From Chiloscyllium plagiosum (Eukaryota): DNA of 64,000 nucleotides. The notes under the pieces are model-generated. The model had not been told where the DNA came from. It was given only the letters and a program-made list of their open reading frames with translations, and did not search any database. Shown in pieces: positions 5,830 through 33,990 of this stretch. Position numbers and translations under genes: made by a program. Position 1 is the first letter of the stretch. Each line of letters begins with the position of its first letter. The stretch lies in assembly GCF_004010195.1 (NCBI RefSeq), contig NC_057717.1:104002282-104066281 (forward strand), in the 5' to 3' direction.

Positions 5830-5985
5830 GCTCTTTCCAGCTCAAGGTGAAGTTCCCAGGGTAAAAGCTATGTCTTTGCGTGGGCTGGCAGGATCTGCTC
5901 TCTGAACGCTGGCTCAGAGCATTAATGGCTTTGCCAGAGAAGGGGGAGAAAGTTGAGTAAGGCTGGTTTCCCAACTTACAACACA
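5830..5985 (-). pseudogene. GREB1-like: GREB1-like block 18 (start of TAGT glycosyltransferase region)
   Basis: Acceptor tttctttagtcacag, phase-compatible with the 7043 donor. PYSTFSPFSGKAINAL vs KSPTFTPTTGRHEHGL. Confidence 0.7.
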
Positions 5986-6135
5986 CTGTGACTAAAGAAA
6001 TAAATATTTGCATTTATATAGCACCTTTCACAACCACTGGGCATCTCGATGCATGTTCTGCTGGTGAAATACTTTTCAAAGTGTGGTCAGTGTTGTGATG
6101 GAGGAAGCACGGTGCCCAATTTGTGGATCGCATTA

Positions 6136-6760
6136 TGTACCAGATCGGACCAGGCCAGGCCCCTCCCAAAATATTATAAGAAGTTATCCTAGGTCCTGAA
6201 GTTTTCTCATTTTAAAGGGCAATCGTGAAGTGTCATGTTCCAGATGCAAAGTACTCAGTGTTAAGAAAAAAACAATTTATTTAAACATTATAGTTAAAAT
6301 ACAAACAAAATAAAAAGGAACTTGGAATAACAACACTATTGGAAAACTTAACAGAATAATAGACACAGTAACTATTACTAATCAACTGTTCCACTATAGT
6401 AATGTCCCACCTCTTGGCAAAAAAGAAAATTCAGACTAATAGATTTGTCTCCCAGGTAACCCAGCAGCACACAAACCCATAAACCCTAGCTTCTAGCTGT
6501 AACTGAGAGGGAAAAGATAGCTCACAGCAGCAACTTCTTAAAGCTAAACCTAAAAACTAAAAAAAACCTTGAAATCCTGGTCTGTAATGGCCACACCCAT
6601 CCAGGCTGCTTCTATTGTCCCAACTTTAAAAAAAAACCTCAAGGCCTCCCAAGCTGCTTACTCTAGAGGTTTCAGCAGACAGCTTTTCGCCTCTGTCTTA
6701 GAAACTCTCTTTTAAAAAGTCAGAACAAAAATCACTTCTTAAAGCCATAACATTGTCACA
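6136..6760 (-). mobile_element. LTR-like element nested in an old SINE
   Basis: TG...CA ends. Shares gttccagatgcaa and aaaatacaaacaaaataaaaag with 26827-27515. Confidence 0.5.
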
Positions 6761-7043
6761 CCAGTAAACTCCCACAGACCACCTCACAGTGATAGTGACT
6801 TGATAGTGTTTCCCAGGGATGTTGGTCAAGGAGTGAAATATTGGCCAGGAAAACAAAGAGAATATCCACCCTCTTCTCTATTCCAGCACTCCAGATTGTT
6901 TCATGTTCCCCCAAGGGGTACCTTAACATCTGGTTCACAAAGACAGCAACTCAATACTGGTGTGGGGAGTTTTACCCTAGACTAGTCTGGAGTGGGACAT
7001 GACTCATTGATTCAGAGATTGGAGTTTTGGTCATATTGGTTAC

Positions 7044-7790
7044 CTCTAATCACACTGGGCAGATAGACAAGGCGGGCGATCAAGGGACTGGACCTGAAGA
7101 ATTCCCTCTGAGAGTAGGGGTGAAAGATGATGAAATCATCAGAGAAAAAGAACAGGAGTTGGCTGTTCAGCCCATCAAGCCTGCTCCTACATTCATGGCT
7201 GATCTGATTGTGGCCTAAATGATATTTTCTTGCCTTGAAATCCTTATCGATCAGAAATCTAACTCAGCCTTGAATATCTCCATTGACCCAGCTTCCATTG
7301 CTCACGAGGAGGAAGGATTCAATCGAGAAAAGGCTCCCTGAGAGAGGAAATTGCTGTTCATTGCCATTTCAAACAGGAAGACCATTATGTTTAAACGGTG
7401 TCTCCTTGTTCTAGATTCCTCCGTAAGGGGAAAACAGCATCTAACCCATGAAACTCCCTCAGGATCTTGTACGTTTGAGGAGTATCACTTCACGTCCTTC
7501 TAAACCCCAATGGGTATAAGCCCAACCTGCTTACCCCCTTCCTCTTAAAGCAATCTCTTCATCGTGTGATTCATTCCAGAACTCTCTCCAATGCTGCTTT
7601 AAACTTGAGTGTAAAACAGTACACACGACCGTCACCAACACTTTGTTTTGAGCTGATATTCAACTCCACTAAGCTGAATGCAGTTGCTGTCTCAGAGATG
7701 GATTTACATATACTTTGCAGATAATTTCCATGCTGTTTGCTGTCTCCATTGTTTGATGTATTTCCACCGCTATAAAGATTCACTAGATGC
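7044..7790 (-). pseudogene. GREB1-like: GREB1-like block 17 (Walker-A region), interrupted by LINE 7143-7594
   Basis: HLVNLYSGG..GNYLQSICKSIS..FSLVELNI vs HPRRLLLSGP..GAYLQFLSVLS..VRLTEVDV. RVYCFTLKF [LINE] DFIIFHPYSQ..VYLPSV vs TLHAFAFSY..HFIIPKSKE..MRLPLV. Donor AG|GTAACC. Confidence 0.7.
7143..7594 (-). mobile_element. CR1-type LINE 3' fragment inside former GREB1-like coding sequence
   Basis: Same family of tail as 5400-5829 and 13310-13720. Confidence 0.7.
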
Positions 7791-7829
7791 TGATAGAACA
7801 GATTTCCTAACCCCTGTAACTCGTGAACC

Positions 7830-8555
7830 AGGGCAGGACCTACACAGTTAATAGTAGGGCAACCTGGGGATTATTGTCAAAGAGACATAAGGGTTCAGGT
7901 ACATAGTTCCTTAAAAGTGGTGTCACAGGGAGACAAGATGGTGAAAAAAGCATTTGGCACATTTACTTTTATTGGTCAGAGTTTAGGATGTCATGTTGAG
8001 GTTGCACAGGACAATGGTGAGGCCACGTTTGGAGTACTGTATCCAGTTCTGGTCACCCTACTATAAGAGGGATATTATTAAATTGGAAAGGGTGCAGAAA
8101 AGATGATACTGTGACTGGAGGTTTTGAGTTGTAAGGAGAGACTGAATAAGCTGGGCCATTTTCCCCTGGCGCATAAGAGGCTGCAGGATGACCTTATAGA
8201 GGTTTATAAAATCATGAGGGGCATGGATAGGGTGAATGGCAAAGATCTTTTCCCTGGGGTGGTGGAGCTCAAAGCTAGGGGGGCAGGTTTTTAAGGGGAG
8301 AAGGGAAAGATATGAAATGGACTTGAGGGGCAACTTTTTCACACAGAGGGTGGGTCGTGAATGGAATGACCTGCCAGAGGGAGTGGTAGCTGCAGGTACA
8401 ATTACAACATTTAAAAGACATTTGGACAAGTTCATGAATAGGAAAGGTTTGGAGAGATACGGGTGAATTGCTGGCAAGTGGAACAAGTTTAGGAAACTAT
8501 TCGGCTAGATGCATTGGACTTGAAGGGTCTGTTTCCTTGCTGTATGACTCTATGA
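7830..8555 (+). mobile_element. CR1/HER1 LINE 3' fragment
   Basis: VRPRLEYCIQFWSPYY..LRGNFFTQRV; tail tatgactctatga. Confidence 0.85.
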
Positions 8556-9025
8556 CATTAAATGTTTTAGCATGAGAGGCTCTGGATAGAAATCCAACAT
8601 CCTTCTGAATTACAAATCCTTTCAGATTCTTTTCAGAAGGTGCCTTCTTGAACCGCAGCAGTCCATGTGCTGTGAGTTGACCCACAATGTGTTAGGGAAG
8701 AAATGATGTGGAGGAGCCGGTGTTGGACTGGGGTGGACAACATTTTGAGCAGAGCTTCTAAACAAACCTTTTGGACTATAACCTGGTCGAGTGTGATTTT
8801 TAGCTGTGTTGGGGAAGAAATTCTCGGATTTTGACCCAACGACAGCGATATATTTCCAAGTCGGGACGGTGAGTGGCTTGGAGGGGAACTTGCAGGGGGT
8901 GGTGTTCCCATGTATCTGCTGCTTTTGTCCTTCTAGATGGAAGTGGTCATGGGTTTGGAAGGTGCTGTCCAAGAGGTTGTCCATTATATTGAATGTTATT
9001 GATACCGCACTCACACGTTACTCAC

Positions 9026-9074
9026 TCAGACCATCGGAACCCTGTTCGTGTGAAACAGTTTCCAGTTGTAAAAT
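9026..9074 (-). pseudogene. GREB1-like: GREB1-like block 16
   Basis: ttttattcacag acceptor and GTGAGT donor. RFYNWKLFHTNRV vs YYRQWTVPRPSHM. Ends in TGA. Confidence 0.6.
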
Positions 9075-9295
9075 CTGTGAATAAAAGTTGTGACCATGAT
9101 GATGAGAAGGTGTCAGGCTCTTGACCACAGTGCCCTGACATTGTGTAGACTCCAGTCCAGCTACTTTACACACAAACTGTCATTTCAACCATTTCATCAA
9201 AGCCGTGAAGCTCAACCTTTTATAAAACCACAGATGTTAAACAGTTTTCTGCAATAAAAGTGGATTTACAGATCATTAAGATGACCAGAATTGTA

Positions 9296-10310
9296 AGCAT
9301 TATTCTAAAAATGGCCTCACCACTGTCCTGTAAAACCATAACATGATGTTCTAACCCTTAGGTTCAATGCGCTGACCAATGAAAGCTAACATGTCAACTG
9401 CTTTCTTCACCATCCTGTCTACCTGTGACTCCACTTTCAAGAAACGATGTACCCCTAAGTCTCTGTGTTTAACAATCCTCAGGACCCTATTCGAAGTCCT
9501 GCCCTGGCCTGTCTTACCAAAATGCAACCCCTCATGTTTCTGTAAAGGGTGCAGAAACGATTTACCGGGACGTTACCGAGACTGGAGGGCTTGACTTATG
9601 TGGAGAGGCTGGGTGGGTTGGGACATCTTCCCCTACAGCATGAGAGGCTGAGGGGTGATTAGATTCAATTCCCTACAGTGTGGAAACAGGCCCTTTGACC
9701 CAACCAGTCCACACCGACCCTCCAAAGAGCTAACCCCCCCAGACCCATTTCCCTCTGACTAATGCACCTAACACTATGGGCAATTTCCCATGGCCAATTC
9801 ACCCTGACCTGCATATCTTTGGATTGTGGGAGGAAACCGGAGCACCCAGAGGAAACCTACGCAGACACGGAGAGAATGTGCAAACTTCACACAGATAGTC
9901 AGCCAAGGTGGGAATCGAACCCAGGTTTCTGGTGCTGTGAGGTAACAGCCCTAATCCCCGAGCCGCTGAACCACCCATAAGGTTGACCTTACAGTGGTTT
10001 ATAAAACCATGAGGGGCATGGATAGGGTGAATAGCTAAGGTCTTTTCGTTGGTGTGGGGTATAGGTTTAGGGTGAGGGGAAAGATTTAAAAGGGACCTAA
10101 GAGGCAACTCTTTCACTCAGAGAGTGGTACGTGTATGGAATGAGCTGCCAGAGGAAGTGGTGGAGGTTGGTACAATTACAGCATTTAAAAGAAGTTTAGA
10201 CAGGTGCATGAATAGGAAAGGTTTAGAGGGATACAGGCCAAACACAGGCAAATAGGACAAGCTCAGTGGGGCCGAATGGCCTGGTTCCATGCTGTCTGAC
10301 TCAATGACTC
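9296..10310 (+). mobile_element. CR1 LINE with inverted 5' part (9296-9538) and HE1 SINE insert
   Basis: The minus piece is the ORF2 region immediately upstream of the plus piece. Confidence 0.75.
9660..9975 (-). mobile_element. HE1-type SINE
   Basis: Head, V-domain and tail on the minus strand. Confidence 0.85.
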
Positions 10311-10797
10311 CACATTGGCACTGTGCCAGCTGAATGTGGCACAGTCAGTCAGGGTCAGTGTGTCTATAACACCAAATGGTCATGATATTTGATCCTGCTT
10401 ATTGTAGAGAACACATTGCCTTCCACCTCCTACACACTTCAGCAGTGGGTTGCATTGTCTGTAGCTTTCTGAAGAATGTAGATAGGGTAAGTGATCCAAA
10501 GGCTCTGTGATAAAATTGTCTAGGGCCTTCTCAGCTCACAGTGGGAGTGAAGAAGCACTCCAGTGTCATGATAATTAGTTCCAAACCCTCCAGAACATTA
10601 CAACAAAGAATAACAAAGTTAAAATAAAACAGGGAAGACCTGGGAGGTGTGATGGTACTTGTTGTGATGGGTTTACTCCTATCAGGAAATCTTATCGAAG
10701 GCTTAGTTAGCAAGAAAGATGTGGGTACCGAGTGTTACAGGGAGTATTCGAGATTGGATTAGAGAGCACGTGGTGTAAAGCTGATGGAGTGGATTAC

Positions 10798-11030
10798 CTG
10801 CGGAATGATCTCATGTAAGGCTCAACCTTGTTCTCAGCCAGAGTTAACTTGAACTAACATTCTGGACTGCAAGAGTCCCACCCTTCTCTCAAAGGAATTT
10901 TCACTTTCACCGTTCAACATATCCTGTGCCCAAACATGCCACGCTCTCCTTGCCAGGAATTCAACCATCCTCTCCAGCCTTTCTGTCTTGCCCTGGTGAA
11001 GATATGGGTCATTGTAGAGGGGGGGGGCTT
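10798..11030 (-). pseudogene. GREB1-like: GREB1-like block 15 (frameshift near 10855)
   Basis: Acceptor ttaacag and donor CAG|GTAATC. VEFLARRAWHV..FERRVGLLQS..FKLTL vs IVFLPKLVYDM..LPKAASLLPS..FRPLL. Confidence 0.65.
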
Positions 11031-11754
11031 CTGTTAATTGGTAATGACTAAAGTGAAAGTACTGGCACTTTGGTAGCACCTATCATAACCTCAGGGCCAA
11101 CAAGGGACCCAAAGCACTTCACAACCTATGAAGTACTTCTGTAATCTAGAAAATGTGACACTCAATTTGTACACAGCAAGCTCCAACATGTAATATACCA
11201 GCAGACTGTTTTAGATGCAATGTAACTGTTGGTCAGGATCCAGTGCAGAACTCCTGTTCTCATGCAATGTAGAGCCAATAGAATTTCTAATTTTCATTTC
11301 AATAGAAACTGAAGTTGATGAAGCTAATAATTGGAGGGAGATGTAAAACCAGCTGATAACTCCCTGTTCCCCCCTCTTACTGTTTCAGCATCTGAGATAT
11401 AATTTGCGGATGACTCAAAACTTGGAAATATATCAAACAAAGGGGACATCAGTGGAAGACTTCCCCATGGCTTGTTAAAATACAGATACACAGCAAATGC
11501 AATTCAACACAGAGATAGGAGGCACTTCAGAGAGAAGATCGAGGTGTGGGAATTTAAATAAAGTAACCTGATGGCAAAGAGAGGCAGGAAAACAGGTTTC
11601 TCAGACACAACTCGTCGATGGGTACAGGACGAGTTGTTAATTCAAGTAATAAAACATACAGGATTATGAGCTTTGTAACAACAGAAATAAAGTACAAAAC
11701 AGAGGAGGTAATGTGAAACCTTTATAAATTCTTGTGTATGGTGTCTAATTTTGG

Positions 11755-11890
11755 CCAGGCAGAAGTGGGTACTGCAGATGCTGGAGATTAGAGTCAAGAT
11801 TAGAGTGGTGCTGGAAAAGCACAGCAAGTCAGGCAGCATCTGGAGAGCAGGAAAATTGATGTTTCGGGCAAAAGCCCTTCATCGGGAATG
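11755..11890 (-). mobile_element. Penelope-like terminal fragment
   Basis: gatgaagggcttttgcccgaaac on the minus strand followed by the conserved tail. Confidence 0.7.
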
Positions 11891-12175
11891 AGCAGAAGGA
11901 TGTTGAAGTTTTGGGGCAAGTGACATACCTAGATCACACTGGAAATGAAATCCAATAGTGTGTGGAGAGCCTTTTTTAATCAGAGAAGCTTAAAGTCACG
12001 GTAGTGTTCCTTTCATTAGAGAGAGACAACTGATGCTGGCTTAACTCAAGGGTGATCCACCTCAGGCAAGGATAGAGGATGAGGAGGCAGAAGCTGTTTG
12101 ATAACTCAGTCAGTGCAGAAATTGAACCTGTACTGTTGGTGTTATGTCAGCCAATTAATCCCCAAATCAGGATTG

Positions 12176-12420
12176 GAATTAGATTAGATTACTTACAGTG
12201 TGGAAACAGGCCCTTCAGCCCAACAAGTCCACACCGACCCGCCAAAGCGCAACCCACCCATTCCCCTACATTTACCCCTTTACCTAACACTACGGGCAAT
12301 TTAGCANNNNNNNNNNNNNNNNNNNNNNNNNNNNNNNNNNNNNNNNNNNNNNNNNNNNNNNNGAATTGAACCCGGGTCTCTGGCGCTGTGAGGCAGCAGT
12401 GCTAACCACTGTGCCACCGT
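12176..12420 (-). mobile_element. HE1-type SINE (spans N-gap)
   Basis: (aatct)n tail and tRNA-like head. Confidence 0.85.
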
Positions 12421-12908
12421 ACTGCTGTAATAGGGTGAGGCAACTGGTGGGGACTGCACCCTGAAGGTCACCACATCTCAGGCACAGGGAAAGGGTGAGA
12501 GCACAGGAGCTTCATTGTAACCTCAACTCATTTGGGAATTCAACCCACACTGGTAGCATTACTAACCAGCTGTCCAACCAACTGAGCTAACCAAACTGGA
12601 GGATAGTTAGCGAGAGTGCCCAAACTGATTGTATGTCTTCGATCGAGTAGATACCTTACGAGAGAAGGGCTGTTGGTGACGAAGGAGATAGATGTAAGGC
12701 AGCTAAAACAAAACCAAATCAGAGGTGGAGGTGAGGCAAGTTTTAACACTGCATCATTACGACCTGGAATACGTTCTTTGGAAAGGACGGTGGAAGCAGG
12801 TTCAAAAATAACTCCCAAATGGAAAGTGAAGAAATAATTAAAAAGGAACGATTTGCAGGGCTGTGCCGGCACCACTCAATGGGCAGAGTGGTCTCCTCTG
12901 AGGTTCAC

Positions 12909-13175
12909 CTCTGAGCAGATTCTCCTGCTCAACCACGACATACTGCATGTAGCAACAGCAAGAAATTAAAACCTCAGGAGTAAGACAATAATTGGCTACG
13001 GGGTTGCACAACTTTACCACAAACTTGCATTTCACCCAGCGCCAGCCAGAATTCTGATTATATTTCATAACTTCAGGAACTGGATAAGCCACTTTCAATC
13101 AAACTGTTCATGTGTTCCCACTGTTGCAGCATCTAACTTGTTAGGACAGGTCTGTTTAAGTGAAGTAACCTCACT
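12909..13175 (-). pseudogene. GREB1-like: GREB1-like block 14 (frameshift near 13096)
   Basis: ANYCLTPEVLISCCCYMQYVVVEQENLL vs LRYCDLRLINSSCLVRTALEQELGL. HEQFD/LKVAYP is joined by a 1-nt frameshift. Donor AG|GTGAAC. Confidence 0.7.
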
Positions 13176-14649
13176 GAAATACATAAAATCCTGATTTAAC
13201 ATTTTTGTATACCCTCGTTGGAGGACTGAGTGGATGCTTTCTCCATTGGCTGGACATTCTAGAATGCGCCAGTGTCTCAGACAGTTGATTGAGACCATCA
13301 GAACAGAGGACATAGCAGCAGTAAAAGACCATTCAGCCCATCGGGTCTGATACCATTCAATGAGATCATGGCTGATCTGCTAACCCTCAACTTCACTTTC
13401 CTGCCCTTTTTCCCCATAACACTTGATTCCCTTCCTGATTAAGTATCTATCTTGAATATACTTAATGACCCAGCCTTAACAGCTCTCTGGGAGAAAGAAT
13501 TCCACAGATTCACTCTCCTCTGAGAATAGAAATTCCTCCTCATCGCTGTTTTAAATGCACAACCTCTTAACCTGCGATGATGCCCTCTGGTCCTTCTCCC
13601 CTTGTCAAGCACCGTTAAGATCTTTGTATGTTGCAAACAGGTCTCCTCTCATCCTTCAAAACTCCAATGAGGACAGGCCCAACCAACTTAGCCATTTCTC
13701 ACCAGCAAATCCCTCCTGACCTGCTCTGGTCAGTCTCCAATGCAGGTGTAGCTTTCCTTAGCTCAGTTGGCTGGACAGCTGGTCTGCAATGCGGAGTGAC
13801 ACCGACAGCAAGGTTTCCATTCCTGTACCATGGGGTTATCAGGAAAGTCCCACCGTGTTGAATTCACCCCTTGCCTGAGATGCAGTGACCCTCAGATTAA
13901 ACCATCCCTAGTTGTCTCTCTCTGATTACTGACTGGGACTGTGGTGACTTTACCTTAGTTAAGGGGCACATAAACTGTTCACAACATTCTAGATATGGTC
14001 CGACGAGAGTTTTGCTTTCTTCTCTGCCTTTATACTCTATGCCCGTTGGAATAAAGGCCTTCGAGAACTGAGATGAGGGGACAAATCTTCACCTTGAGAA
14101 CCGTGAACCTTTGGAATGCTCTGTTACTGAGGGCTCAGTCACTCAGTCATCTCACATTTAAATCTGAGATGGGCCAATATCTGGCTGATAAGGAAATTGA
14201 AGGTAGGGAAGGAGGTTGGGGTAGAGCAAGCCATGATTGAAAGATGAGGCAGACCTGATCGGCTAAATGGCCCAATCCTGCTCCCATTTCTCTGAAAAGT
14301 GGAGAGATTAAATATGCAATCTTAGCGATGACATCTGAGGGGTTTAGGGAGCTTCCCAGATTAGTTTTTATCTAATTGACCCTGCAACCGCCAACCCCCC
14401 CCCCTCTATTTTTCTGTCCTTTTTTTAACCTCTCACATGTACTCAGGGTGGGGGGTGGGGTCAGAACTTTCTAGAAGGATTATGCTTGTCAGGGAAGGCT
14501 GGATGAGGAAGGACTCCTTTCTCCAGGAGGAAGGCGGACTGTCAGAGAGAGACCTTTAAACTCATGGATTGAGATAGAGAAGAAGCCTCCCATTCTGCAC
14601 AAGATCAGAAAAAGATTCCAGAAATATGAGATGGTTGCCAATTATACAG

Positions 14650-14975
14650 TCAATAGCCAGAGACTTTTCTCCAGGGCAGGATTGACTGGTACGAGGGGTC
14701 ACAGTTTTAAGATATTAGGAGAAAGTATAAAGGAGATGTCAGAGGAAGGTTCTTTATGCAGAGAGTTGTGAATGCATGGAATGTGTTGCCAACGGTGGTG
14801 CTGGAAGCAGAGACATTAGGGACATTTAAGCGACTGCTGGACATGCACATGGAGATCAGTGAATTGAGGGGTGCGTAGGTTATGTTATTATATTTTACAT
14901 TAGGATTAATCCTCGGCACAACATCGTGGGCCAAAGGGCCTGTTCTGTGCTGTACTTATCTATGTTCTATGTTCT
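14650..14975 (+). mobile_element. CR1 LINE 3' fragment
   Basis: TRGHSFKILG..FFMQRVVNAWN; tail ctatgttctat. Confidence 0.8.
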
Positions 14976-15357
14976 AAATCCAATTGGGAAGTCAGGAGAA
15001 AGTTCTCTATCCCGTGAGAGGTGAGGAAGTAGGACTCACAGTCATAGATGAAGAGCACTGATACTTTTGAGGAGAAATTAAACAAAGAAATCGTGGAGAC
15101 AATAACATTATTGCAATGTCAACAGATTAGGAATTGTGCAACCCCAGGCTAATGTTCTGGAGGCATGGATTTGATTCGTATCATTACCGGCTGTTAGAGT
15201 CTGAATTCAATAAGAACTCTGGAATAATGGTGATGGAATCACTGTCAATCATCGTTAAAACTCAGCTTTTATTCATGGATGTCCTGAGGAAAGGAAATCT
15301 GCCATCTTTACCTGGTCTGGCCGACTTGAGACCCGGACCCATAGCAATGGGACTCCC

Positions 15358-15642
15358 AGTGCCAGGGACCTGGGTTCAATTCCACCCTCAGGCGACTGTC
15401 TGTGTCTGCGTGGGTTTCCTCCCACAGTCCAACGATGTACAGATTAGGATGGATTGGCCATGGGGAAATTGCCCATAGTGTCCAGTGATATGCAGGCTGG
15501 GTGGGTTAATCATTGGAAATGTAGGTTAACAGGGATGTGGTGGGTCCAGGTGGGATGCTGTTTGGAAGGTCGGTGTGGGCTCGATAGGCTGAATGGCCTG
15601 CTTGCACACTGTGGGGGGTGGGGGGTGGGGGGTAGTTCTATG
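15358..15642 (+). mobile_element. HE1-type SINE (partial)
   Basis: B-box and V-domain remnants. Confidence 0.75.
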
Positions 15643-16042
15643 ATTGTTTGTTTCAATGTGGTTGACTCTTAACCACCCTCTGGGTCACTAAGGATGGGCA
15701 GCATATGTTGATCAAGACAGAGGCACTAACATCCCATGAGTGAATATGAAATCTGCAGTGAGAGAAAAGGGCTAAGCCAATAGATAGTTAAATCAAACGT
15801 GGAAAGCTACATAAAGTCCATCCTGACATCAGTCAACAACAATCTTCACTGAGGATAAACGACACAGAAGGCAAATGTTCTGATATCATCATAACATGGC
15901 TCCTTTCACACATGCTCAGTAGCTGCTAGTGGAGTAAAGGTGTAATTAACCCTTTCCAGTGCAGGTGGAGGTGGAACCTAAGCATCGACACAGTCTAACT
16001 GGGCTGAATGGCCTGTATTTGTGCCGAATTTTCGAGGTGGTC

Positions 16043-16146
16043 ACAATGCCAGCCGGCCTCTTCCTGCCCTCTTTGTAAACAGTGACAGCTGCTGTAATGG
16101 TTGCCCAACTAATTGAGTAACGAAAATGTAGTCAGCTGTCTGGTTC
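16043..16146 (-). pseudogene. GREB1-like: GREB1-like locus candidate exon (NQTADYIFVTQLVGQPLQQLSLF)
   Basis: Strong tgtgtttcag acceptor, phase-compatible with the 17843 donor (TPR|NQT). Position in the GREB1 alignment is uncertain and the 3' boundary is unclear. Confidence 0.5.
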
Positions 16147-16559
16147 CTGAAACACATGAAAATTATGCGGAGATCAGTACAGATATAGGAACCATTAAAT
16201 GCATGAAGTAAAATCAGCTGGTTTCTCCAACACCTGCCTGATCTGCCTCCCACTCCACAGCTAACCAATTGTACGTCTAACCTGATGTTCCCTCACCCAC
16301 TCCCCTCTGAGGGAGTGCTACACTGTCAGGGGTGCCATCTTTCAGATGAGTCATTAAACTCAATTGATTTCAAAGGCAAACAGGATACAATTGTTCCTGA
16401 AATTTGTTAAAACTATTGTCACTATGTTAAACATTGCTTTTACTTTCATCCATTGATCTTGGGTTAAGGGATACTGGACTATGCGGGGTTTTCTCGGGGA
16501 GGGCTACGTGGTTGACGGTACCACTCTCTCAGTAAGATGTTTGTGTTTTGGTTGATCGT

Positions 16560-17270
16560 CATAACGTCACACAGCACGAAAACAGACCTTTCAGTCCAAC
16601 CCACTCCATGGTGACCATGTTCACAAACCAAACTAGTCCCACCTGCCTGCTCCAGGCCCATATCCCTCCAAACCCTTCCTATTCATCTACTTATCCAAAT
16701 GTTGTAACTGTACTCACATCCACCACTTCCCCTGGAAGTTCATTCCACACACGAACCGCTCTCTGAGCAAACGTTTGCCCCTCATGTCTTTATAAACCTC
16801 TCACCTTTAAAATGTGCTCCCTAGTCTTGAAATCCCCAACCCTCCGGTAAAGACATCTGCCTTTCACCTTATCCATGCCCCTCATGATTTTATAAACCTC
16901 TATCAGAGCATTCCTTAACCTCCTCCACGCCTGTGAAAAAAGTCCCAGCCTATCCAGCCTCTCCTTATAACTCAGGCCCCCTGTTCTCAGCAACATCCTG
17001 GTAAATCTTTACTGAGCCCTCTCCAGTTTAATAGTATTCTTCCTATACCCAGGTAACGTCCTGTATAACCTCCACATAACGTCCCAACTCCTATTCTGAA
17101 AAGTCTGACTAATGAAGGCATGCTAAATGCTTTCTTCACCACCCTGTCGACAGATGTTGTAAATTTCAAAGAATTATGCACCTGAATGCCTAGCTCTCTC
17201 TGTTCTACACCACCACCCAAGGCCCTACTTTTAATTTGTAAGTCCTGCCCTTATTTGTTTTAACAAAATG
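16560..17270 (-). mobile_element. CR1 LINE 3' fragment
   Basis: LSYKERLDRLGLFS..IEVYKIMRG. Confidence 0.85.
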
Positions 17271-17842
17271 CTAAAGATCACATCCCACTCTTTCTGACGA
17301 TACACAGGAAATTCTCTTAGTTTCCTGACTGAAACCTACCACCAAAAACAGATTGATTGCTCATTTATACCACTGATCTTTGTGGGATCTTGCCATGCCA
17401 CAAATTGACTGCAAGATTGACTACACTTCAGCAACTCTTCGTATTCTGTGGTGCACTTTGGAGAAAACCTGAGGATGTGATAATATTGACTCTATGCTTC
17501 AAGACTCTACTCCCTCACCCCCTCAACGGGTTTACTCTCAGTACAGCTGACCTATACTCTGCTATTAACACCCGCTCTGGAGCTGTTTCCACTCCATTTG
17601 CCTTTAGTTTGGTGATACTTGTGATCTCTAGTCTCCCTTGTCCTCAAACCCGCTCCTAACCTTCTCGTCAGTTCCACTGGCTCTACCCCACCATTTTCAT
17701 CAGTGTAAAGCACTCCACCTTCCCACCTTCTTCTATTCCAAAGAAGATACGTACTGAACTCTGTTCTTCTCTCCCCACACACTGCCAGACCTGCTGAGTT
17801 TCTCCAGCATTCTCTGTTTGTGATGAAGGAAAAGGGACTTGC

Positions 17843-18462
17843 CGTGGTGTTTGGAATGTATACGTCTTGACTTGAACAACAGCAGGGCCAGTAAGATGAA
17901 CTATCACTCAGGCAATGATTGTTACTCTGTTAGTTCCTGACTTATCCAGGTGGTGTTTCCAACTTATGTTCCTCAGGCAGGAGTTGCGTGCTTCCTGTGA
18001 AACAGTCTGAGCATTTCAATTAAACAGAACTGCGATTTGCAATGAATCATTTCGACGACAGCACTGGATAGCCCAGTGATGATTCACCTTCTGAATTCTG
18101 AGGTACCCCTTGCAGTCTCATCAGAAACCAGTGATAAAACCAAATTAGATTTGGTCCCCAACTTGACAGAAGCAATTTTCACTTTGGAAAAACAGTTCGC
18201 TTTGTGAGCACGATTGCCAACTGCTTCAGTGCCTCTTCAATGAGTCAGATACAATCAATGGAACATCTTCTGGTAATTTCCCAAACATTACTTTTCAGTT
18301 AAAGTGGAACTGCAATCACGCAGATACTTTGTTGAGTAGAATTGAGTAGGTTTTCCACAGCAAAGGTTGAGCAAGTTTCCCATATTAACGCAAATCTCTC
18401 CCCAAGATGGTGAAAAACCACGTCTCCACCTCTGCTCAGGCCTTGATCTGACCAAATGCAAC
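17843..18462 (-). pseudogene. GREB1-like: GREB1-like block 13
   Basis: ETCSTFAVENLLNSTQQSICVIAVP vs ETLEITQNLLNSPKQ..MVLLRVP. After stops, ALKQLAIVLTK..KLLLSS..HWFLMRL vs AYERLAHVRAR..EIILGS..KHFVKQL. Ends at a CG|GCAAGT GC-type donor. Confidence 0.7.
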
Positions 18463-18514
18463 CTGATCCCGAAATAACATTAGCCCAATGCAAAGGGAAA
18501 AGATCATCATAGCT

Positions 18515-22149: not shown

Positions 22150-22426
22150 TGTTGTATAAAAGGTAACGACTCTGAAAGAGTAATTTTTGAAGTTACATCA
22201 GCTCCATCCAACCTAATGACATTACACAGTCGTTGGGAAGAGAGACAGTGAGTCGAACATGAGCTGCTGATGGGGATAGGTGTGACATACCGGGCTCCTA
22301 AGAGGCGTACTTATACCTAACGATATAATATTGACTGTCCCTTTTGATATCATTCAATAAACTACACCTTGTTATGTGAGACAAACTCCTTGTTAAGATG
22401 CTCTCAAATGCTATCCTGTACCAACA
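22150..22426 (+). mobile_element. Short solo-LTR-like element
   Basis: TGTTG...CAACA termini and internal AATAAA. A second partial copy lies at ~22916-23017. Confidence 0.6.
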
Positions 22427-22454
22427 TCACTGTCAGCAATGACCCCATTCATAC

Positions 22455-23640: not shown

Positions 23641-23918
23641 CAGTCACAAGGATGTAAAGCAGACAGCGCACTGTAAATAAAATCAGTTGCTACATTTGTT
23701 CACCGAGTGGAGGGAATTCAGAGAGCTCGATATTCTCAGACCACATGCTGTGATTCTGTGATAACTTCATGGGCATCAAAGTGCACTCACATACAGACTG
23801 TATAAAATAACACAGCAAGCGTCCCCCAAAACACTAACCTTTCCTTTCTGTTACTGCCTGTTTGTTCATGTTTCCTCCAATGTTAGATTCCTCATCTCTT
23901 GTAGATATCATCACTCAC

Positions 23919-24120
23919 TCAGACTGAACTCTAGCTAGCTCTCTTAGAACACATCTGCTCCTAAAGAAGTGAAACAGCAGCAGAGGCTGCGGATCTCCCC
24001 TCGAGACTAAAGTTATTGGCTCAGAGTGAAAGATATTATTATTTACTGAAGATATTCTAAAGTCATCTCTGTCTCCCCAGGTGACCATAGCTGGTACCTT
24101 GTGGTATTTGCCACCTCGAA
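23919..24120 (-). pseudogene. GREB1-like: GREB1-like block 12
   Basis: Acceptor cctcttacag and donor GTGAGT. IRGGKYHKVPAMVTWG..IFHSEPI..LLLFHF vs LRYDSSFEAMVTALG..RLHSAVI..VLVQHY. Confidence 0.75.
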
Positions 24121-24569
24121 CTGTAAGAGGCACTGGGTAAGGGTTGTTTCAGGTGCCATCATAGAATCAGAGAATTCCTACGGTGCAGAAAGAGGCCATT
24201 CGGCCTGTCAAGTCTGCACCGACCCTCTGAAGAGCGTCTCATCCAGAGCCCTAACTGAACCCACAGGCCCACATTTCCCATGGCGAGCCCACCTAGCTTG
24301 CCAAGCTCTATGGACAAATTAGCATGGCCAATCCTATTAACCTGCACATCTTTGGACCAAATAAACACTGTGGAAGGAGAAAGCTTATTTCTCTGACTAG
24401 GTGCAGGTGAGAAATATTCGCCACCGCGTGACCGTGTACAACTGAGGGGAGAACATGAAACTGGCGCAGACCGCGTTACTGTCACCGGCAACTTCCTCAC
24501 CGTGAGGTGGACTGCCTTCAGGAGGTGTTTCAGATAAGGGCTTCAGGGAACAGGCCAGACCAGAGTCCA

Positions 24570-24987
24570 ACTGTTGAGTACGAGAGTTGGGATTTCATGT
24601 TGCGGCTGTACAGGACATTGGTTAGGCCACTGTTGGAATATTGTGCGCAATTCTGGTCTCCTTCCTATCAGAAAGATGTTGTGAAACTTGAAAGGGTTCA
24701 GAAAAGATTTACAAGGATGTTGCCAGGATTGGAGGATCTGAGCTACAGGGAGANNNNNNNNNNNNNNNNNNNNNNNNNNNNNNNNNNNNNNNNGTGGTGG
24801 AGGCTGGTACAATTGCAACATTTAAGAGGCATTTGGATGGGTATATGAATAGGAAGGGTTTGGAGGGATATGGGCCGGGTGCTGGCAGGTGGGACTAGAT
24901 TGGGTTGGGATATCTGGTCGGCATGGACGGGTTGGACCGAAGGGTCTGTTTTCATGCTGTACATCTCTATGACTCTATGACTCTATG
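24570..24987 (+). mobile_element. Young CR1/HER1 LINE 3' fragment (gap)
   Basis: LYRTLVRPLLEYCAQFWSPSY; (ctatgact)n tail. Confidence 0.9.
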
Positions 24988-26826: not shown

Positions 26827-27515
26827 TGTATTTATCATGAACCAGACCAAACCCCTTCAAAACATGCCAAGGAAGTAGCCGAGACCCCAACCATTTCTTA
26901 TTTTGAACAGACATCCCTGGTGTTGCGTTCCAGATGCAATTCGATTGGTTGAATTACCAGGCTTGAAACAAAGCACATGTTATTCATGCACTATGATTAA
27001 AATACAGACAAAATAAAAAGAATTGGCTTAACTGTAACTCTATCAAAATACTTAATAAAATAATAAACTACGCATTAACTGTTCTGATATAATAGCATCC
27101 ACAGTGGCTCAGTGGTTAGCACTGCTGCCTCACAGCGCCAGGGACCCAGGTTCAATTCCTGCCTCAGGTGACTGTCTGTGTGGAGTTTGCACATTCTCCC
27201 CGTGTCTGTGTGGGTTTCCTCTGGGTGTTCCGGTTTCTTTCCACAGTCCAAAGATGTGTAGGTTAGGTGAATTGGCCATGCTAAATTGCCCGTAGTGTGG
27301 GTGGATTATTCAGGGGTAAATGTAGGAGAATGGGTCTGGGTGGGTTGCTCTTTGGAGGGTCGGTGTGGACTTGTTGGGCCGTAGGGCCTGTTTCCACACT
27401 GTAGGGAGTCTAATCTAAACACACCCTTGGCAAAGATAGATAGTCCCACCTATAATTCCAGCAACAGGAAGAGAACCCAGCTTTTAGATATAACAGAGAA
27501 CGAGAGAGAGAGAGG
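26827..27515 (-). mobile_element. LTR-like element with HE1 SINE (27101-27418, +) inserted
   Basis: Homology to 6136-6760 on both sides of the SINE. Confidence 0.55.
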
Positions 27516-27521
27516 ACTAAC

Positions 27522-28105
27522 TCAATTCATTATCTACAAAACTCTGCAGTTTGTAAATGATATGCATTGATCGTGACTCAGTGTGAGTTGAATTGTCCAT
27601 AACTGATGGATTTGGGTAAATTCTCAGTGTGAGTTGTAAAGTTTCACAATGTGGGCAAATGTTCCATGAACAGATTGCGTGAAGAGGGGAAATTCGAATT
27701 CCTTTGATCATATAATTGAGCAAATCAGCAACTCACTTTATATTTCTCACTAGTTTTTATGAGCCAAATAATCTATCCCTGCAGACAATTTTGTCAGAAA
27801 TATTCTTTTGTAGTCTGCATTGGACTATGGTACTTTACTGTTGACATGACAGAAGCTGAAGATTAAATGTGTTTAAGATTTTTTAGGATGGTAATAAATC
27901 ATTTTTATGTACTTGGAGAAAGGATCCATTAAAGAATAGACAGAAAATTTGCGATAATACTATTACTGATTGGTGATAAACTGTGGGAGGAGAACATATC
28001 ACTCATTCGCTTTTGTAGCTGGATAACCATCAATGACGGGTAATGTTGGAGATTCACAGAGATAAACAAATGCTCTTCTCTCCTAGAGTTGGAATTTATA
28101 TCGAA
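27522..28105 (-). pseudogene. GREB1-like: GREB1-like blocks 10-11
   Basis: REEHLFISVNLQHYP vs KEAPNIVTLHVTSFP; IRISPLHAICSW vs [20 protein letters not shown] vs YFGLSEFIE. GTTAGT donor at 27521. Confidence 0.7.
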
Positions 28106-28336
28106 TCATTCCTGCTTTCACCACTGAAACATGGGATTTATCCTGAAACTCTTTGGTTGTTATATCAGTTTAGCTTTGATCACTACCCTGGTCACTTTCT
28201 GGTGCAAAAAATGTAAGTTTATTCCACACTCTTGGACTTTTTCTTGGGCTTGTTATTAATCTTCAGGAACTAACAAGGAATTCAACTGGATCATTTCCTT
28301 CCAACTGTGAGAGAAGCCAGAAAAGTGAGGAGGTGG

Positions 28337-28647
28337 ATTCGATTCGATTGGATTAGTTGTAATGAGGAAACAGGCCATTTGGGCCCAACAAGTCTACACC
28401 AACCCTCTGAAGAGTAACCCACCCAGCCCCACTCCCCTACCCAAATTTATCCCTGACTGTTGCACCTAACAGTATGGGCAATTTTGCATGGCCAATCCAC
28501 CCTAATCTGCACATCCTCACATTGTGGGAGGAAACCAGAGCACGCACAGGGAAGGATGTGCAAACTCCACATAGACAGTCACCCAAGGCTGGAATTGAAC
28601 CCAGGTCCCTGGCACTGTAAGGCAGCAGTACTGACCACTGAGCCACC
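28337..28647 (-). mobile_element. HE1-type SINE
   Basis: Head, V-domain and tail. Confidence 0.85.
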
Positions 28648-28799
28648 TGATTCATTACCCCCACTCGATACAACTCCCAACACCAGTGGCCCTCAGTCAC
28701 CCAGTGCTGGTGTTACATAAATGAAAGCCGTTGTTGCTGTATTGAATCTTGCTATCCCCACAATCCTAAGGTGACAATCCTACTGATTAGCTACAGAGG

Positions 28800-29512
28800 G
28801 TCTACAGTGTGAAAACGGACCCTTGAGCACATGCTGCCCAGTTTTCACAATTAATCTAGTCCCATTTGCCTGTGTTTGGTCCATATCCCTCCATTCTGAT
28901 CCCATCCATGGACCTGACCAAATGTTTCTTAAAATGATGAAATTGTACCCACCTCCACCACTCCCTCTGGCAGCCTGTCCCAGACATTCACTGCCCTCTG
29001 TGTGAAAAAATTGCCCCTCTGCACCATTTTGTATCTCTCCCCTCTCACCTTAAACCTATGCCCTCTAGTTTTAGAACCCCTTTACCATGGGGAAATGCTG
29101 TTGACTGCCTACCTTATCTATGCCTCTCCTGACTTTATATACCTCTATCACGACACCCCCTCAGTCTCCTAAAATTCAAGGAACAAAAGTCCCAGCCTAT
29201 CCAGCCTCTCCTTCTAACTCAGACTTTTCAGTTCAGTTAGCATCCTGGGAAATCTTGTCTGCACTCTTTCTAGTTTAAGAACATCCTTTGTATAGACCAC
29301 AAAGCAGACTCAACCCTGGCTTCTTGCATGACCATTTAGAGTCATAGAGTCATAGAGATGTACAGCATGGAAACAGACCCTTCGGTCCAACCTGTCCATG
29401 CCGACCAGATATCCCAACCCAATCTAGTCCCACCTGCCAATCTAGTCCCTCCCAACCCTTCCTATTCACATACCCATCTAAATGCCTCTTAAATGTTGCA
29501 ATTGTACCAGCC
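28800..29512 (-). mobile_element. Two CR1 LINE 3' fragments
   Basis: ORF2 end and tails on the minus strand. Confidence 0.8.
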
Positions 29513-29730
29513 TGTCTAAGTATTGTGTGCCCATCTCACACCCTTCCCAACGTTTGGCATCTTCAGCGTTTTTGAGCGTTCAATCCACCAGATGGGCCCA
29601 GATCTCCTTCTCCGGCTCCGAGCAAAGGTCACTGCACCCAAAACGTTCAACTTTGATTTCTCTCCACAAACGCTGCCAGACTTACTGAGTTTTTCCAGCA
29701 ACTTCTGTTGTTGTTTTCGATAAGGAATGA

Positions 29731-29930
29731 CTATTTCCCAGAACTGTTCAGCTCATTTTCCTGAAGATGCTCAAAGATTTCAGCCAGTAGTATCAGAATA
29801 ATAAAGTCAAATGTCATGACAGATTTAATATGAGGCGTCTTGTACAGATGTAAATATAGATGGTTTGAAATGTAATTAAATTGATTTACACAGGGTAAGT
29901 AAACCACTGAAAAATGTTGGTCACATAATT
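29731..29930 (-). pseudogene. GREB1-like: GREB1-like block 9 (Walker-B-like region)
   Basis: Acceptor ttctttggcctcag. LYKTPHIKSVMTFD vs SFQNPHTLFVLIHD. Confidence 0.6.
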
Positions 29931-30159
29931 CTGAGGCCAAAGAATAGAACAAATGATGTAAACTTGACTCATGGCTGTGATTTATTTTAAAATCTAAACA
30001 GTAATAATAACAAGGCTGGGAGACTCATTAAAGAACACCATCATGTGACCAATTCAGCATGGTTTTTACTCTCTGTGACCTTGGGCATGCGGATTGACAA
30101 TGATGTGCGAAAATAGTGTAAAATATTTAAAAACCTTCAACTTTCATTTCAATACCTCT

Positions 30160-31790
30160 GTAAACTCCTCCAACCCCTACACCCTTCCCTATCTCCGTAA
30201 CTTCCTCCAACCCCTATATCCCACCTTAACTCTGTAAGTAACCAACCCCTACACCTGCTCCCTATCTCAGTAACCAACCCCTACACCTGCTCCCTATCTC
30301 AGTAACCAACCCCTACACCTGCTCCCTATCTCAGTAACCAACCCCTACACCTGCTCCCTATCTCAGTAACCAACCCCTACACCTGCTCCCTATCTCAGTA
30401 ACCAACCCCTACACCTGCTCCCTATCTCAGTAACCAACCCCTACACCTGCTCCCTATCTCAGTAACCAACCCCTACACCTGCTCCCTATCTCAGTAACCA
30501 ACCCCTACACCTGCTCCCTATCTCAGTAACCTCCTCCAACCCCTACACCTGCTCCCTATCTCAGTAACCAACCCCTACACCTGCTCCCTATCTCAGTAAC
30601 CAACCCCTACACCTGCTCCCTATCTCAGTAACCAACCCCTACACCTGCTCCCTATCTCAGTAACCAACCCCTACACCTGCTCCCTATCTCAGTAACCAAC
30701 CCCTACACCTGCTCCCTATCTCAGTAACCAACCCCTACACCTGCTCCCTATCTCAGTAACCAACCCCTACACCTGCTCCCTATCTCAGTAACCAACCCCT
30801 ACACCTGCTCCCTATCTCAGTAACCAACCCCTACACCTGCTCCCTATCTCAGTAACCAACCCCTACACCTGCTCCCTATCTCAGTAACCAACCCCTACAC
30901 CTGCTCCCTATCTCAGTAACCAACCCCTACACCTGCTCCCTATCTCAGTAACCAACCCCTACACCTGCTCCCTATCTCAGTAACCAACCCCTACACCTGC
31001 TCCCTATCTCAGTAACCAACCCCTACACCTGCTCCCTATCTCAGTAACCAACCCCTACACCTGCTCCCTATCTCAGTAACCAACCCCTACACCTGCTCCC
31101 TATCTCAGTAACCAACCCCTACACCTGCTCCCTATCTCAGTAACCAACCCCTACACCTGCTCCCTATCTCAGTAACCTCCTCCAACCCCTACACCTGCTC
31201 CCTATCTCAGTAACCTCCTCCAACCCCTACATCTGCTCCCTATCTCAGTAACCTCCTCCAACCCCTACACCTGCTCCCTATCTCAGTAACCTCCTCCAAC
31301 CCCTACACCTGCTCCCTATCTCAGTAACCTCCTCCAACCCCTACACCTGCTCCCTATCTCAGTAACCTCCTCCAACCCCTACACCTGCTCCCTATCTCAG
31401 TAACCTCCTCCAACCCCTACACCTGCTCCCTATCTCAGTAACCTCCTCCAACCCCTACACCTGCTCCCTATCTCAGTAACCTCCTCCAACCCCTACACCT
31501 GCTCCCTATCTCAGTAACCTCCTCCAACCCCTACACCTGCTCCCTATCTCAGTAACCTCCTCCAACCCCTACACCTGCTCCCTATCTCAGTAACCTCCTC
31601 CAACCCCTACACCTGCTCCCTATCTCAGTAACCTCCTCCAACCCCTACACCTGCTCCCTATCTCAGTAACCTCCTCCAACCCCTACACCTGCTCCCTATC
31701 TCAGTAACCTCCTCCAATCCCTACACACACTCCCTATCTCCTCCCTATATCTGTAACTTTCTCCAGCTCCTATATCCTTCCCTATCTCTG
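30160..31790. repeat. 32/38-bp minisatellite (accaacccctacacctgctccctatctcagta, +ctcctc variant)
   Basis: Near-perfect tandem units with degenerate edges. Confidence 0.95.
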
Positions 31791-31798
31791 TGAAGTAC

Positions 31799-32003
31799 CT
31801 CAAGAGGGTTTCAACACAATCAGGATGAAATACAAAGGCACGTTATTGTTGCAGCTTTGGTCCACTGGGTTGGCTGTAAGTCCAATGTTACGCCTTCCTT
31901 TGGTGCCTGTCTGCACTGTAGCCTCTGTCCAGGATCATCATGAGGTGGCTCACAACTTAAGAGATGAGCAAAAACTCCCCATTTTACTGGTGATACCCAC
32001 ACC
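31799..32003 (-). pseudogene. GREB1-like: GREB1-like block 8
   Basis: Acceptor cattttcag. VSPVKWGVFAHLLS..GVTLDLQ vs IRPFQLAVAQKLLS..TQNLDLG. A frameshifted tail LYFILIVLKPS matches VDFLICIPPS. Confidence 0.65.
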
Positions 32004-32245
32004 CTGAAAATGATTTACAGCCAATGAAATATCTTTGCGACACTTTCACTGTTGAGATGTGGGGAATGTGAAACCAATTTCCACACAGCAGAAAGCCCAC
32101 TATGAAATGTCTGCCCAGATACTCCATAGGTAAAATCCCATTTACTGCTGCTATTGTATTAGCCTCTGGTTTTCCTGGCTGGCAGCTCAGGATACTGCAC
32201 TGTCAATAGTTTTAAAACACTTCAACTCACAACCTTCTGCCTCAG

Positions 32246-32592
32246 TAGCTCAATGGTAAGCACTGCTGCCTCACAGTGTCAGTGACCTGGATTCGATTCT
32301 GCCCTCAGGCGACAGTCTGTGTGGAATTTGTACATTCTCCCCACCTGCATTGTTTCCCTCTGGGTTCTCCAGTTTCCACCCACCGTCCAAAGATGTGCAG
32401 GTTAGGGTGGATTGGCCACGTTAAACTGCCCCATTGTGTCCAGGGATGTGCAGGCTAGGTGGGTTAGCCATTGGAAACACAGGGTGACAGGGATAGAGTT
32501 AGGAAGTGGGTCTGGTTAGAATGCTCTTCAGAGGGTTGGTGTGGACTCGATGGGCCAAATGGCCTGTTTCCACACTGTAGGGATTCTATGAT
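32246..32592 (+). mobile_element. HE1-type SINE
   Basis: Head, V-domain and tail. Confidence 0.85.
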
Positions 32593-32886
32593 TCAGTGTA
32601 AGTGATGTGGTGATGTGAACAACATTGGCGATCAGGCAGTAGTGTAGAAGTTGCGGAGGGAGCTGTATTAGCAAGCTGAAGATTCATCCATTTATATGAC
32701 ATGCACTGTTTCACTATTTTAGCTCAGGTTTTAGTCCATTTATTTGAGCACTTGCTAAAGTACTGGAGGAAAACAAAACTAATGTTTGAAACACTCATTT
32801 GAAAATTCCTAAAATGTTATATTTCTGTGTACATGAGTACAGTTCCACACACCATTATCATGGACTGGAATTGTTACAGAACTAAC

Positions 32887-32967
32887 CTACAGCTCAGTTC
32901 ACTGATGGTAGCCTTGAGGTTTAATGAATATGCAGATGAACTATGCTGTGATCTAGCTGCGACTCTG
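32887..32967 (-). pseudogene. GREB1-like: GREB1-like candidate 81-bp exon (RVAARSQHSSSAYSLNLKATISELSCR)
   Basis: Pyrimidine-rich ...CTAG acceptor and AG|GTTAGT donor. Phase 2-2 matches both neighbours. Sequence similarity is weak. Confidence 0.45.
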
Positions 32968-33553
32968 CTAGATGGTTTGAAGAACAGCAGCAAAGGACAG
33001 CGATGTCTGTTGCAAGGTCGTTATGTTTACCATGGAAAACTTACTCTTGGAAGAAAGTTCAGATAAACTCAGCTCAATGCTCAAGGTATTCCTTCCAACG
33101 TTTGGACTGGGGTGTACAAAGTTAAAAATCACGCAACACCAGGTTATAGTCCAACAGGTTTATTGGAAGCACTAGCTTTCGGAGCGACGCTCCTTCATCA
33201 GGTGGCTGTGACCACCACCAGCAGCTTCCCATTAAACCTGTTAGACTATAAACTGAGTTTATCTGAACCCCACACTAAAGCATTCACTGCCATTTTGTTG
33301 TTGTTGGAAAAATCAATGGTTGCAAGAACATTCCAACAGGTAAGTTATGCAGCAATTAACTTCTGAATGTCCCTGGGTGCTATATAGGTAATTCTCCAGC
33401 CTGATGGACTTGACCACTGACCTTAAAGGGATGCAATCAGGGTTCGTTACCTCATGTCCGAACTGTTCTTCAGAACCCATGAGCAATGCTGTACAACTGA
33501 CTTGATCAAAACCCCCTCATAATTGTGACTGCCCCTGTTAAATCTTCACTTAC

Positions 33554-33990
33554 AGACCTCTGGCTGAAGGACAATAACTACACATTCCTTGTACTAAGGC
33601 ACCCAATGACCAGAGTCTGTATTTTAGATATATTACAGTAAGCGGGAGTGCGCATTGGTAATATTTTGGATTTAAAACCATCTTTCTACATATTCCAATA
33701 TTAACCTTCGTGCAGGCACTTAAAGCCACAATCATAACCTTTGACCTCTTTCTCAGCTCTGTTGACAGGTTTGAGCTGTCTGACTTAGTTGCAATGATAA
33801 GAATGCAGAGAAACACTTCCAGTAAGCAGTTACAGATTGAAATGCTAGAGGCCTTTACTCATGAGCAAGATAAACCCTGGGCCAGGCTTTGTGTAATGAG
33901 GCCACATCCATCATTCTGATGCATTGCTCATTCCTGACTCCGCTGAAGAGCTCTGAGTGCGGCTAACAGCCACAGATTGGCACAAACACA
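33554..33990 (-). pseudogene. GREB1-like: GREB1-like block 7
   Basis: NDGCGLITQSLAQGLS vs NDSVHVIECAYSLAEGLS; KVMIVALSAC..VLNPKYYQ..RLWSLGALVQGMC vs NYVVIICAC..LLTPAEYQ..KVDSLGAFFSTLC. Ends at a GTAAGT donor (33553-33548). Internal stops. Confidence 0.8.

Follow-up and report, generated by a model that had tools for sequence, protein, structure and literature searches.

Splice-like sites on the minus strand of a Chiloscyllium plagiosum locus: a probable old, unprocessed pseudogene, possibly of GREB1-family descent

About 13 exon-like blocks, totalling ~3.5 kb or ~1,180 codons, are spread over the minus strand from 5.8 to 34 kb of the window, the whole 64,000-nucleotide stretch of Chiloscyllium plagiosum DNA analyzed here (Table 1). 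They raise the question of whether a spliced gene once stood at this locus and, if so, by what route and how long ago it was lost; the original prediction had viewed the blocks as the remnant of a spliced gene, not simply a retrocopy, in which the preserved splice sites would suggest recent inactivation or residual transcription. On balance, the locus is probably an old, unprocessed and silent pseudogene of a multi-exon gene. We infer that the blocks were its exons, and the parent was possibly a very divergent gene of the GREB1 family.

Table 1. Blocks and candidate exons, in the order in which they would have been transcribed (positions in the window)
Feature	Position	Strand	Remarks
Block A, candidate exon	33554..33960	-	Donor TCT/GTAAGT; 5' limit undefined; best frame of 135 codons with 2 stops, the final 102 codons open
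Candidate exon, 81 nt	32887..32967	-	Phase 2-2, open; both ends originally predicted
Candidate exon C	31799..32003	-	Acceptor originally predicted; donor GAG/GTACTT located in follow-up; one frameshift required; terminates with a stop codon
Candidate exon D	29731..29930	-	Absent from the original prediction; acceptor in top 0.3%; ~66 codons open after a phase-1 join from 31799; 3' end without a good donor
Block E, 783 nt	27522..28304	-	Strong additional acceptor 28304; weak donor TGA/GTTAGT
Candidate exon	23839..24120	-	Acceptor originally predicted; donor AAG/GTTAGT at 23839 (one stop) or TGA/GTGAGT at 23919
18400 block	17843..18400	-	Ends at GC donor ACG/GCAAGT; upstream acceptors all weak
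16146 block	15670..16146	-	Begins at originally predicted acceptor; 3' limit undefined; search for an in-phase donor onto 13173 found none
Candidate exon, 265 nt	12909..13173	-	Additional moderate acceptor 13173; one frameshift
Candidate exon, 233 nt	10798..11030	-	64 open codons, then one frameshift
Candidate exon, 49 nt	9026..9074	-	Ends in TGA; donor TGA/GTGAGT located in follow-up
Candidate exon, 64 nt	7044..7107	-	Top 1% acceptor located in follow-up; open, in phase at both ends
Last candidate exon	5795..5985	-	63 open codons up to a stop bordering a repeat fragment

All seven donors originally named (six GT and one GC, at 17843, donor coordinates denoting the last exon base) and all seven AG acceptors are present on the minus strand; translation across the joins reproduced the peptides NEL-IRGG, TPR-NQT, LLR-EAPP and FR-RFYNW. 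By matrix score, six of the seven donors ranked in the top 2-10% of every GT in the window, with 27522 reaching just the top 33%, and the acceptors ranked in the top 2-15% of every AG. The junctions named in the prediction are alternate ones only. Two additional joins, 31799 to 29930 and 9026 to 7107, both on top-1% acceptors, also close in phase and lengthen the open frame by ~66 and ~85 codons, each right behind a TGA; across the first two junctions 189 codons are open. Connecting the two junctions of exon 11030-10798 takes a frameshift, and at three links of the exon chain a good in-phase site was absent.

Could such sites be found where there was never a gene? According to this alternative, which we consider less likely though it fares best among the rivals, the locus is non-repetitive DNA of the usual intergenic or intronic kind, from which good-looking GT/AG pairs and open stretches were picked by hand, and the likeness to GREB1 is noise. 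Several comparisons speak in its favor. Measured against the best site per 200 nt, ignoring phase, the mean site score was unexceptional (P 0.12 for donors, 0.76 for acceptors), and in 18,114 non-repeat nt strong sites were equally dense on the minus strand (42 donors, 27 acceptors) and on the opposite one (40 and 26). A phase-consistent exon chain constructed blindly scored 60.6 in the window, compared to 51.1, 64.7 and 64.7 in three control sequences, all of which yielded chains of 18-27 in-phase "exons"; the blind chain recovered 4 of the 14 originally named sites. The mean of 104 open codons over the seven joins was higher than the 58 of one random good pair (P 0.02) but similar to the 99 of the best of three chance pairs (P 0.37), and the in-phase GT/GC-AG ends at the seven named and two further joins are no more numerous than picking would yield. 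As to the blocks themselves, one of ten was more open than random unique DNA at P 0.05 (the others at 0.13-0.91), a composition-based coding test did not distinguish them from the controls, and their CpG and GC contents resemble those of adjacent unique DNA. Against the absence of a gene stand the two additional in-phase joins and the scores of phase-restricted random picks, of which 0 of 100 for donors and 4 of 100 for acceptors reached the observed mean. In strength, the splice-like sites do not exceed chance sites chosen by hand, and they do not prove a gene; since a pseudogene in slow decay would be expected to keep such sites, and chance picks yield them easily as well, the splice-site argument alone is of little weight.

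A further point against this alternative is the resemblance to GREB1, judged by eye. Short peptides in at least eight blocks look similar to what we take to be the middle, helicase and glycosyltransferase regions of GREB1, in collinear order. The presumed GREB1-like peptides are SLAQGLS and SLGA in block A, HTENLPKSISY in block E, PLLWKT and HHWAIQC in the 18400 block, FTKRAGR in the 16146 block, ARRAW in the 11030 exon and RFYNWK in the 9074 exon.

The searches for homology were all blank, as would be expected if there were no gene, and neither the blocks' original description as homologous nor the link to GREB1 found confirmation in Pfam, phmmer, the ESM Atlas, the PDB or a viral TAGT profile. 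Pfam searches with 36, 45, 25 and 21 translated pieces matched no block to the GREB1 family, all five models of which were in the searched library (PF15782 GREB1_N, PF20688 GREB1_2nd, PF20692 cpSF2-GREB1, PF20691 TAGT and PF20267 GREB1_C). For the TAGT glycosyltransferase domain, the absence of a match in any block was accompanied by a positive control: intact phage TAGTs were cut into 18 pieces of 64 residues, and 14 of these were detected, a sensitivity that decay in the blocks would lower. This control covered the TAGT model; the circularly permuted SF2 helicase module (PF20692), as well as GREB1_N, GREB1_2nd and GREB1_C, also gave no match in the blocks. Weak matches to RyR (E 0.11), TMEM192 (E 0.05), AbiEi_3, TBP-TOTE and Toxin_34 were under the cut-off and were taken as chance. 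Word-seeded phmmer, by which relatives at ~30% identity are out of reach, found no relative of three blocks among 153, 352 and 134 candidates (protein lengths 453-2000, 280-2000 and 825-2625, respectively). The ESM Atlas search returned no usable match and the PDB search nothing useful. With a TAGT profile built from 86 viral sequences, both the window and the joined blocks scored at null level (joined blocks, P 0.40), and a cpSF2 seed was found in 0 of 35 viral records. A metagenome scan matched one of 277 stretches; this match lay in the shadow frame of a long bacterial ORF, kinase-like by our reading, and was attributed to chance. Predicted from a single sequence, the fold of block A reached a pLDDT of 42, Rfam and tRNA scans were empty, and the literature search listed no publication describing a third GREB1 gene or such a shark pseudogene.

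The age of the putative pseudogene was approached through two related species, organisms B and C, in which the blocks lie on single contigs at a depth of 6-15 and sequence words of block E are present. Each frame contains 7-9 stops across 18400-17844 and 14-17 across block E, and the 18400 block is gap-free in both relatives; these stops and frameshifts are real lesions and not assembly errors. Organism B displays 22 differences and 0 gaps over 17795-18482, and organism C 18 differences and 0 gaps over 17970-18497; in neither can the stretch be open in any one frame (P <=1e-4 and P <=2e-3, respectively). Because B and C are gap-free across this stop-riddled block (from 17795 and 17970, respectively, to 18482), its lesions are older than their split from C. 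plagiosum. The five gap letters of organism B in 12737-13381 all fall outside exon 13173-12909, and B therefore has that exon's frameshift too. Among the eight pieces listed for each species, divergence from organism B was 44/1333 in block-rich and 155/3982 in block-poor DNA (P 0.36), and from organism C 83/1786 and 140/2534 (P 0.21). The blocks thus diverge at about the intron rate, as in neutral evolution, in a comparison of low power. Two observations run counter to pure neutrality: four of the six differences listed for two exons of organism B are synonymous (P 0.053), and the organism C piece 17970-18497 is the least diverged of its pieces (3.4%).

The same observations bear on a second alternative, that the locus was recently disabled or is still transcribed, for example as a spliced non-coding RNA, with its splice sites under selection. 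We regard this as improbable. The 14 intact dinucleotides out of 14, the slightly (non-significantly) lower block divergence and the synonymous differences just described are in line with it, and an unplaced 1-letter gap in organism C piece 10238-10954 could undo the 11030-10798 frameshift. The lesions common to B and C where tested, together with the near-intronic divergence, speak against recent inactivation, and the RNA data lend no support to residual transcription. In raw RNA run X21, a single-cell poly-A sample of which ~2 in 100 of the run was examined, depth was 0 in the three cleanly unique block bins (10682-11117, 12862-13297 and 18094-18500), and 0 of 4 tested junctions were among the 15 splice joints listed (there were 6,565 further joints). 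Contig run X23, which indicates presence only, had no piece on the unique blocks, and no RNA data set was listed as containing 27500-28400, which is evidence neither for nor against expression.

Least probable of all, if by little, is a retrocopy of a GREB1-family mRNA, processed wholly or in part and later broken up by transposons whose insertions pose as introns: the human member of this family has 38 exons (PMC6163654), for which blocks of 400-780 nt are long, and repeats make up 8-52% of each gap, but every gap retains 445-1759 nt outside in-window repeats, 11014-11785 aligns as a single unremarkable contig in both B and C, and in-phase GT/GC...AG ends at all seven gaps are not expected from insertions. 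The self-repeat mask covers 0 of the 3,552 nt of the blocks. The two additional in-phase joins, the non-repeat DNA in each gap and the by-eye resemblance of several blocks to GREB1, in order, make a spliced gene remnant, as opposed to a retrocopy, plausible; they do not demonstrate it.

In the explanation that we prefer, an old and unprocessed pseudogene, a gene on the minus strand would once have been spliced, and its introns would since have been filled with repeats. Its death would precede the split of C. plagiosum from the two relatives, and the sequence would now be drifting without function, with no spliced product made in the RNA examined. The surviving splice signals may be due to incomplete neutral decay and to the fact that kept sites are what a reader notices. 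The parent would have combined a permuted helicase with a glycosyltransferase, in exons longer than those of GREB1. More tentatively, the blocks might be what is left of a third GREB1-family gene of vertebrates, encoding a permuted helicase and a DNA-type glycosyltransferase. Such a gene would have diverged much further than GREB1 and GREB1L have from each other, with an exon structure of its own and a different chromosomal location; it would have disappeared from this shark lineage long ago, and the protein collection searched would contain no close intact relative. The GREB1 family has been connected with oestrogen signalling and with the development of kidney and ear. If the link to it is true, this family once had a third member in jawed vertebrates, and an intact copy might persist in another cartilaginous fish, where the glycosyltransferase would be open to study.

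How does the locus compare with known systems? The profile consensus of the phage TAGTs (e.g. gene 27 of Nonlabens phage P12024L) begins with a hydrophobic strand that closes on GR, followed by KIVVE, for which the 16146 block has LSLFTKRAGR and KIVVD/CVVYPQ; of the acidic motifs in the alignment, DD and EDTD, neither was seen here. GREB1 adjoins ROCK2, and GREB1L adjoins ROCK1. The domain layout of the two proteins is described in PMC6163654 and their activity in PMC7968844. The locus differs from both genes in that no counterpart of the family's N-terminal region was found in the blocks, in that the typical exons of GREB1 are shorter than the blocks, and in that the blocks lack an intact frame. 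Unprocessed pseudogenes, unitary or duplicated, are similar to it in their multi-block layout, intron-like gaps, and stops and frameshifts, as well as in lesions common to close relatives and near-neutral divergence.

The reading that we favour, with some reserve, is that this locus is an old unprocessed pseudogene, already dead before the split of the three related species compared here. All 14 dinucleotides (six GT, one GC, seven AG) of the seven donor/acceptor pairs named in the original prediction were found on the minus strand, from 33554 to 5985, and its four junction peptides translate as quoted. Scored with vertebrate matrices, the acceptors rank within the top 2-15%; among GT sites, six of the seven donors reach the top 2-10%, and 27522 the top 33%. 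These sites are better than random ones, but not better than selected ones: when the best site within 200 nt was taken, their mean donor score was equalled in 12 of 100 trials and their mean acceptor score in 76, whereas picks limited to one phase equalled them in only 0 (donors) and 4 (acceptors) of 100. Strong donors and acceptors numbered 42 and 27 on this strand versus 40 and 26 on the opposite one, over 18,114 non-repeat nt. A blind model (in-phase exon chaining, allowed through stops and frameshifts) retrieved 4 of the 14 sites; its score was 60.6 on the minus strand, and three controls gave 51.1, 64.7 and 64.7. The joins were spanned by a mean of 104 open codons, where a single random good pair gave 58 (P 0.02) and best-of-three pairs 99 (P 0.37); at P 0.05, one of the ten blocks exceeded random unique DNA in openness and the other nine did not. 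Phase consistency by itself is therefore no evidence of a gene, and the proposal that phase-consistent pairs prove a spliced one was not borne out. A chain picked by hand within non-coding DNA is a serious rival, which we consider possible. The surviving splice signals of an old pseudogene can be explained without selection.

Only one end had been given for most blocks, and the missing joins were sought in this analysis. The joins 31799 (GAG/GTACTT) to 29930 (a top-0.3% acceptor, about 66 codons opened) and 9026 (TGA/GTGAGT) to 7107 (acceptor in the top 1%, 21 codons opened) close well; an in-frame TGA precedes both, and the frame from the latter continues across the last predicted junction for 64 codons more. 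Splice-site scoring found no good donor at the end of block 29930 and only weak acceptors upstream of block 18400, and no in-phase donor was found to lead from block 16146 to 13173. Three candidate exons each require one frameshift. The chain totals about 13 blocks and 3,552 nt, 0 nt of it under the self-repeat mask. Rfam gave no match at gathering score anywhere in the window, and a motif scan of it found no PTGER1-like seventh-helix motif, so that PTGER1 coding exons may sit outside it or within N gaps.

Features of the window
Feature	Position	Strand	Details
Strong acceptor	28304	minus	start of block E
Strong donor	23839	minus	splice-site scoring
Minisatellite	30237-31709		32-nt unit, 43 copies, 98% matches, very homogeneous, plus longer variant unit; within a proposed intron
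Short repeat copy	12178-12420		hundreds of single-cell RNA reads stacked, loose poly-A/T ends on either side; further copies probably transcribed or within 3' ends
Tandem array	3963-5277		30-nt unit, 44 copies; unit looks like an internal piece of an abundant SINE-like repeat
Tandem array	55281-55709		32-nt unit, 13.6 copies
LINE reverse-transcriptase (RVT_1) fragment	47209-47592	plus	E 5e-10
LINE reverse-transcriptase (RVT_1) fragment	61572-61901	plus	E 2e-9
Top plus-strand coding-like score	59105-61144	plus	20.7 vs null 4.3; upstream of RVT_1 fragment; probably the 5' region of one long LINE copy

Reads and contigs, among them those of two related species, organisms B and C, were aligned to 5450-18500, which holds four of the seven junctions. 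B showed 22 differences and no gaps over 17795-18482, and C 18 differences and no gaps over 17970-18497. With so few differences against 7-9 stops per frame in the 18400 block (18400-17843; 5-8 in the part covered by C), neither relative can read through it in any one frame (P no more than 1e-4 for B, 2e-3 for C), and any frameshift in this gap-free block is common to all. In 12737-13381, B has five gap letters, every one of them upstream of exon 13173-12909, whose frameshift B must therefore share. Block-rich and block-poor sequence diverged by 3.3% and 3.9% in B (P 0.36) and by 4.6% and 5.5% in C (P 0.21), among the eight pieces listed for each; word sharing implies 3.1-3.3% and 5.7% for block E. 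Leaning the opposite way, of the six listed B differences that fall in two exons, four are synonymous (P 0.053; 40 of 537 differences listed), the 18400 block is C's most conserved piece, and one unplaced gap in C's piece 10238-10954 might reverse a frameshift. In one raw single-cell RNA sample (about 2 in 100 of the run read), bins 10682-11117, 12862-13297 and 18094-18500 had a depth of 0, and the 15 joints listed (with 6,565 more unlisted) include none of the proposed junctions; zero depth in one sample falls short of proof of silence. A locus disabled recently or still transcribed, as had been suggested, is unlikely, given lesions common to B and C where aligned, block divergence near that of block-poor sequence and the three empty bins. 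A retrocopy is likewise unlikely; the proposed introns each hold 445-1759 nt not covered by in-window repeats.

As to the parent of the favoured pseudogene, the proposed GREB1-like identity gained no support from Pfam, phmmer or a viral TAGT (TET-associated glycosyltransferase) profile, and no tool named a parent. The five GREB1-family Pfam models, all in the library, had no match to 36, 45, 25 and 21 translated pieces; Pfam search did detect the decayed reverse-transcriptase fragments of the same window and, among 18 pieces of 64 residues cut from intact phage TAGTs, picked up 14 (12 with E <1e-4). Three word-seeded phmmer searches, a method blind to ~30% identity, found no relative, which speaks against a close, intact orthologue within the length ranges searched. 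Nothing usable came from Atlas, PDB or metagenome searches, and a profile of 86 viral TAGTs stayed at null level on the joined blocks, even when frameshift-tolerant (13.9 versus a null mean of 13.6, P 0.40).

By eye, and against what we take to be the GREB1 sequence, peptides of block A (33960-33554; SLAQGLS, SLGA), block E (HTENLPKSISY), the 18400 block (PLLWKT, HHWAIQC) and the blocks starting at 16146 (FTKRAGR), 11030 (ARRAW) and 9074 (RFYNWK) look GREB1-like. They follow the presumed order of the GREB1 middle, helicase and glycosyltransferase regions, and the length of block E, 261 codons, agrees with the GREB1 spacing that we assume. Each likeness is short and, by rough estimate, singly below significance; the collinearity is worth following but does not amount to a test, and the locus is not assigned to the GREB1 family. 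None of the papers listed by our literature search is on a third GREB1 gene or on the present locus. Background is available in PMC7349314 and PMC10587355, from neither of which any number here derives, and, on GREB1-family activity, in PMC7968844. For comparison, PMC6163654 describes 38 exons for a human member of the family, and a helicase-TAGT layout.
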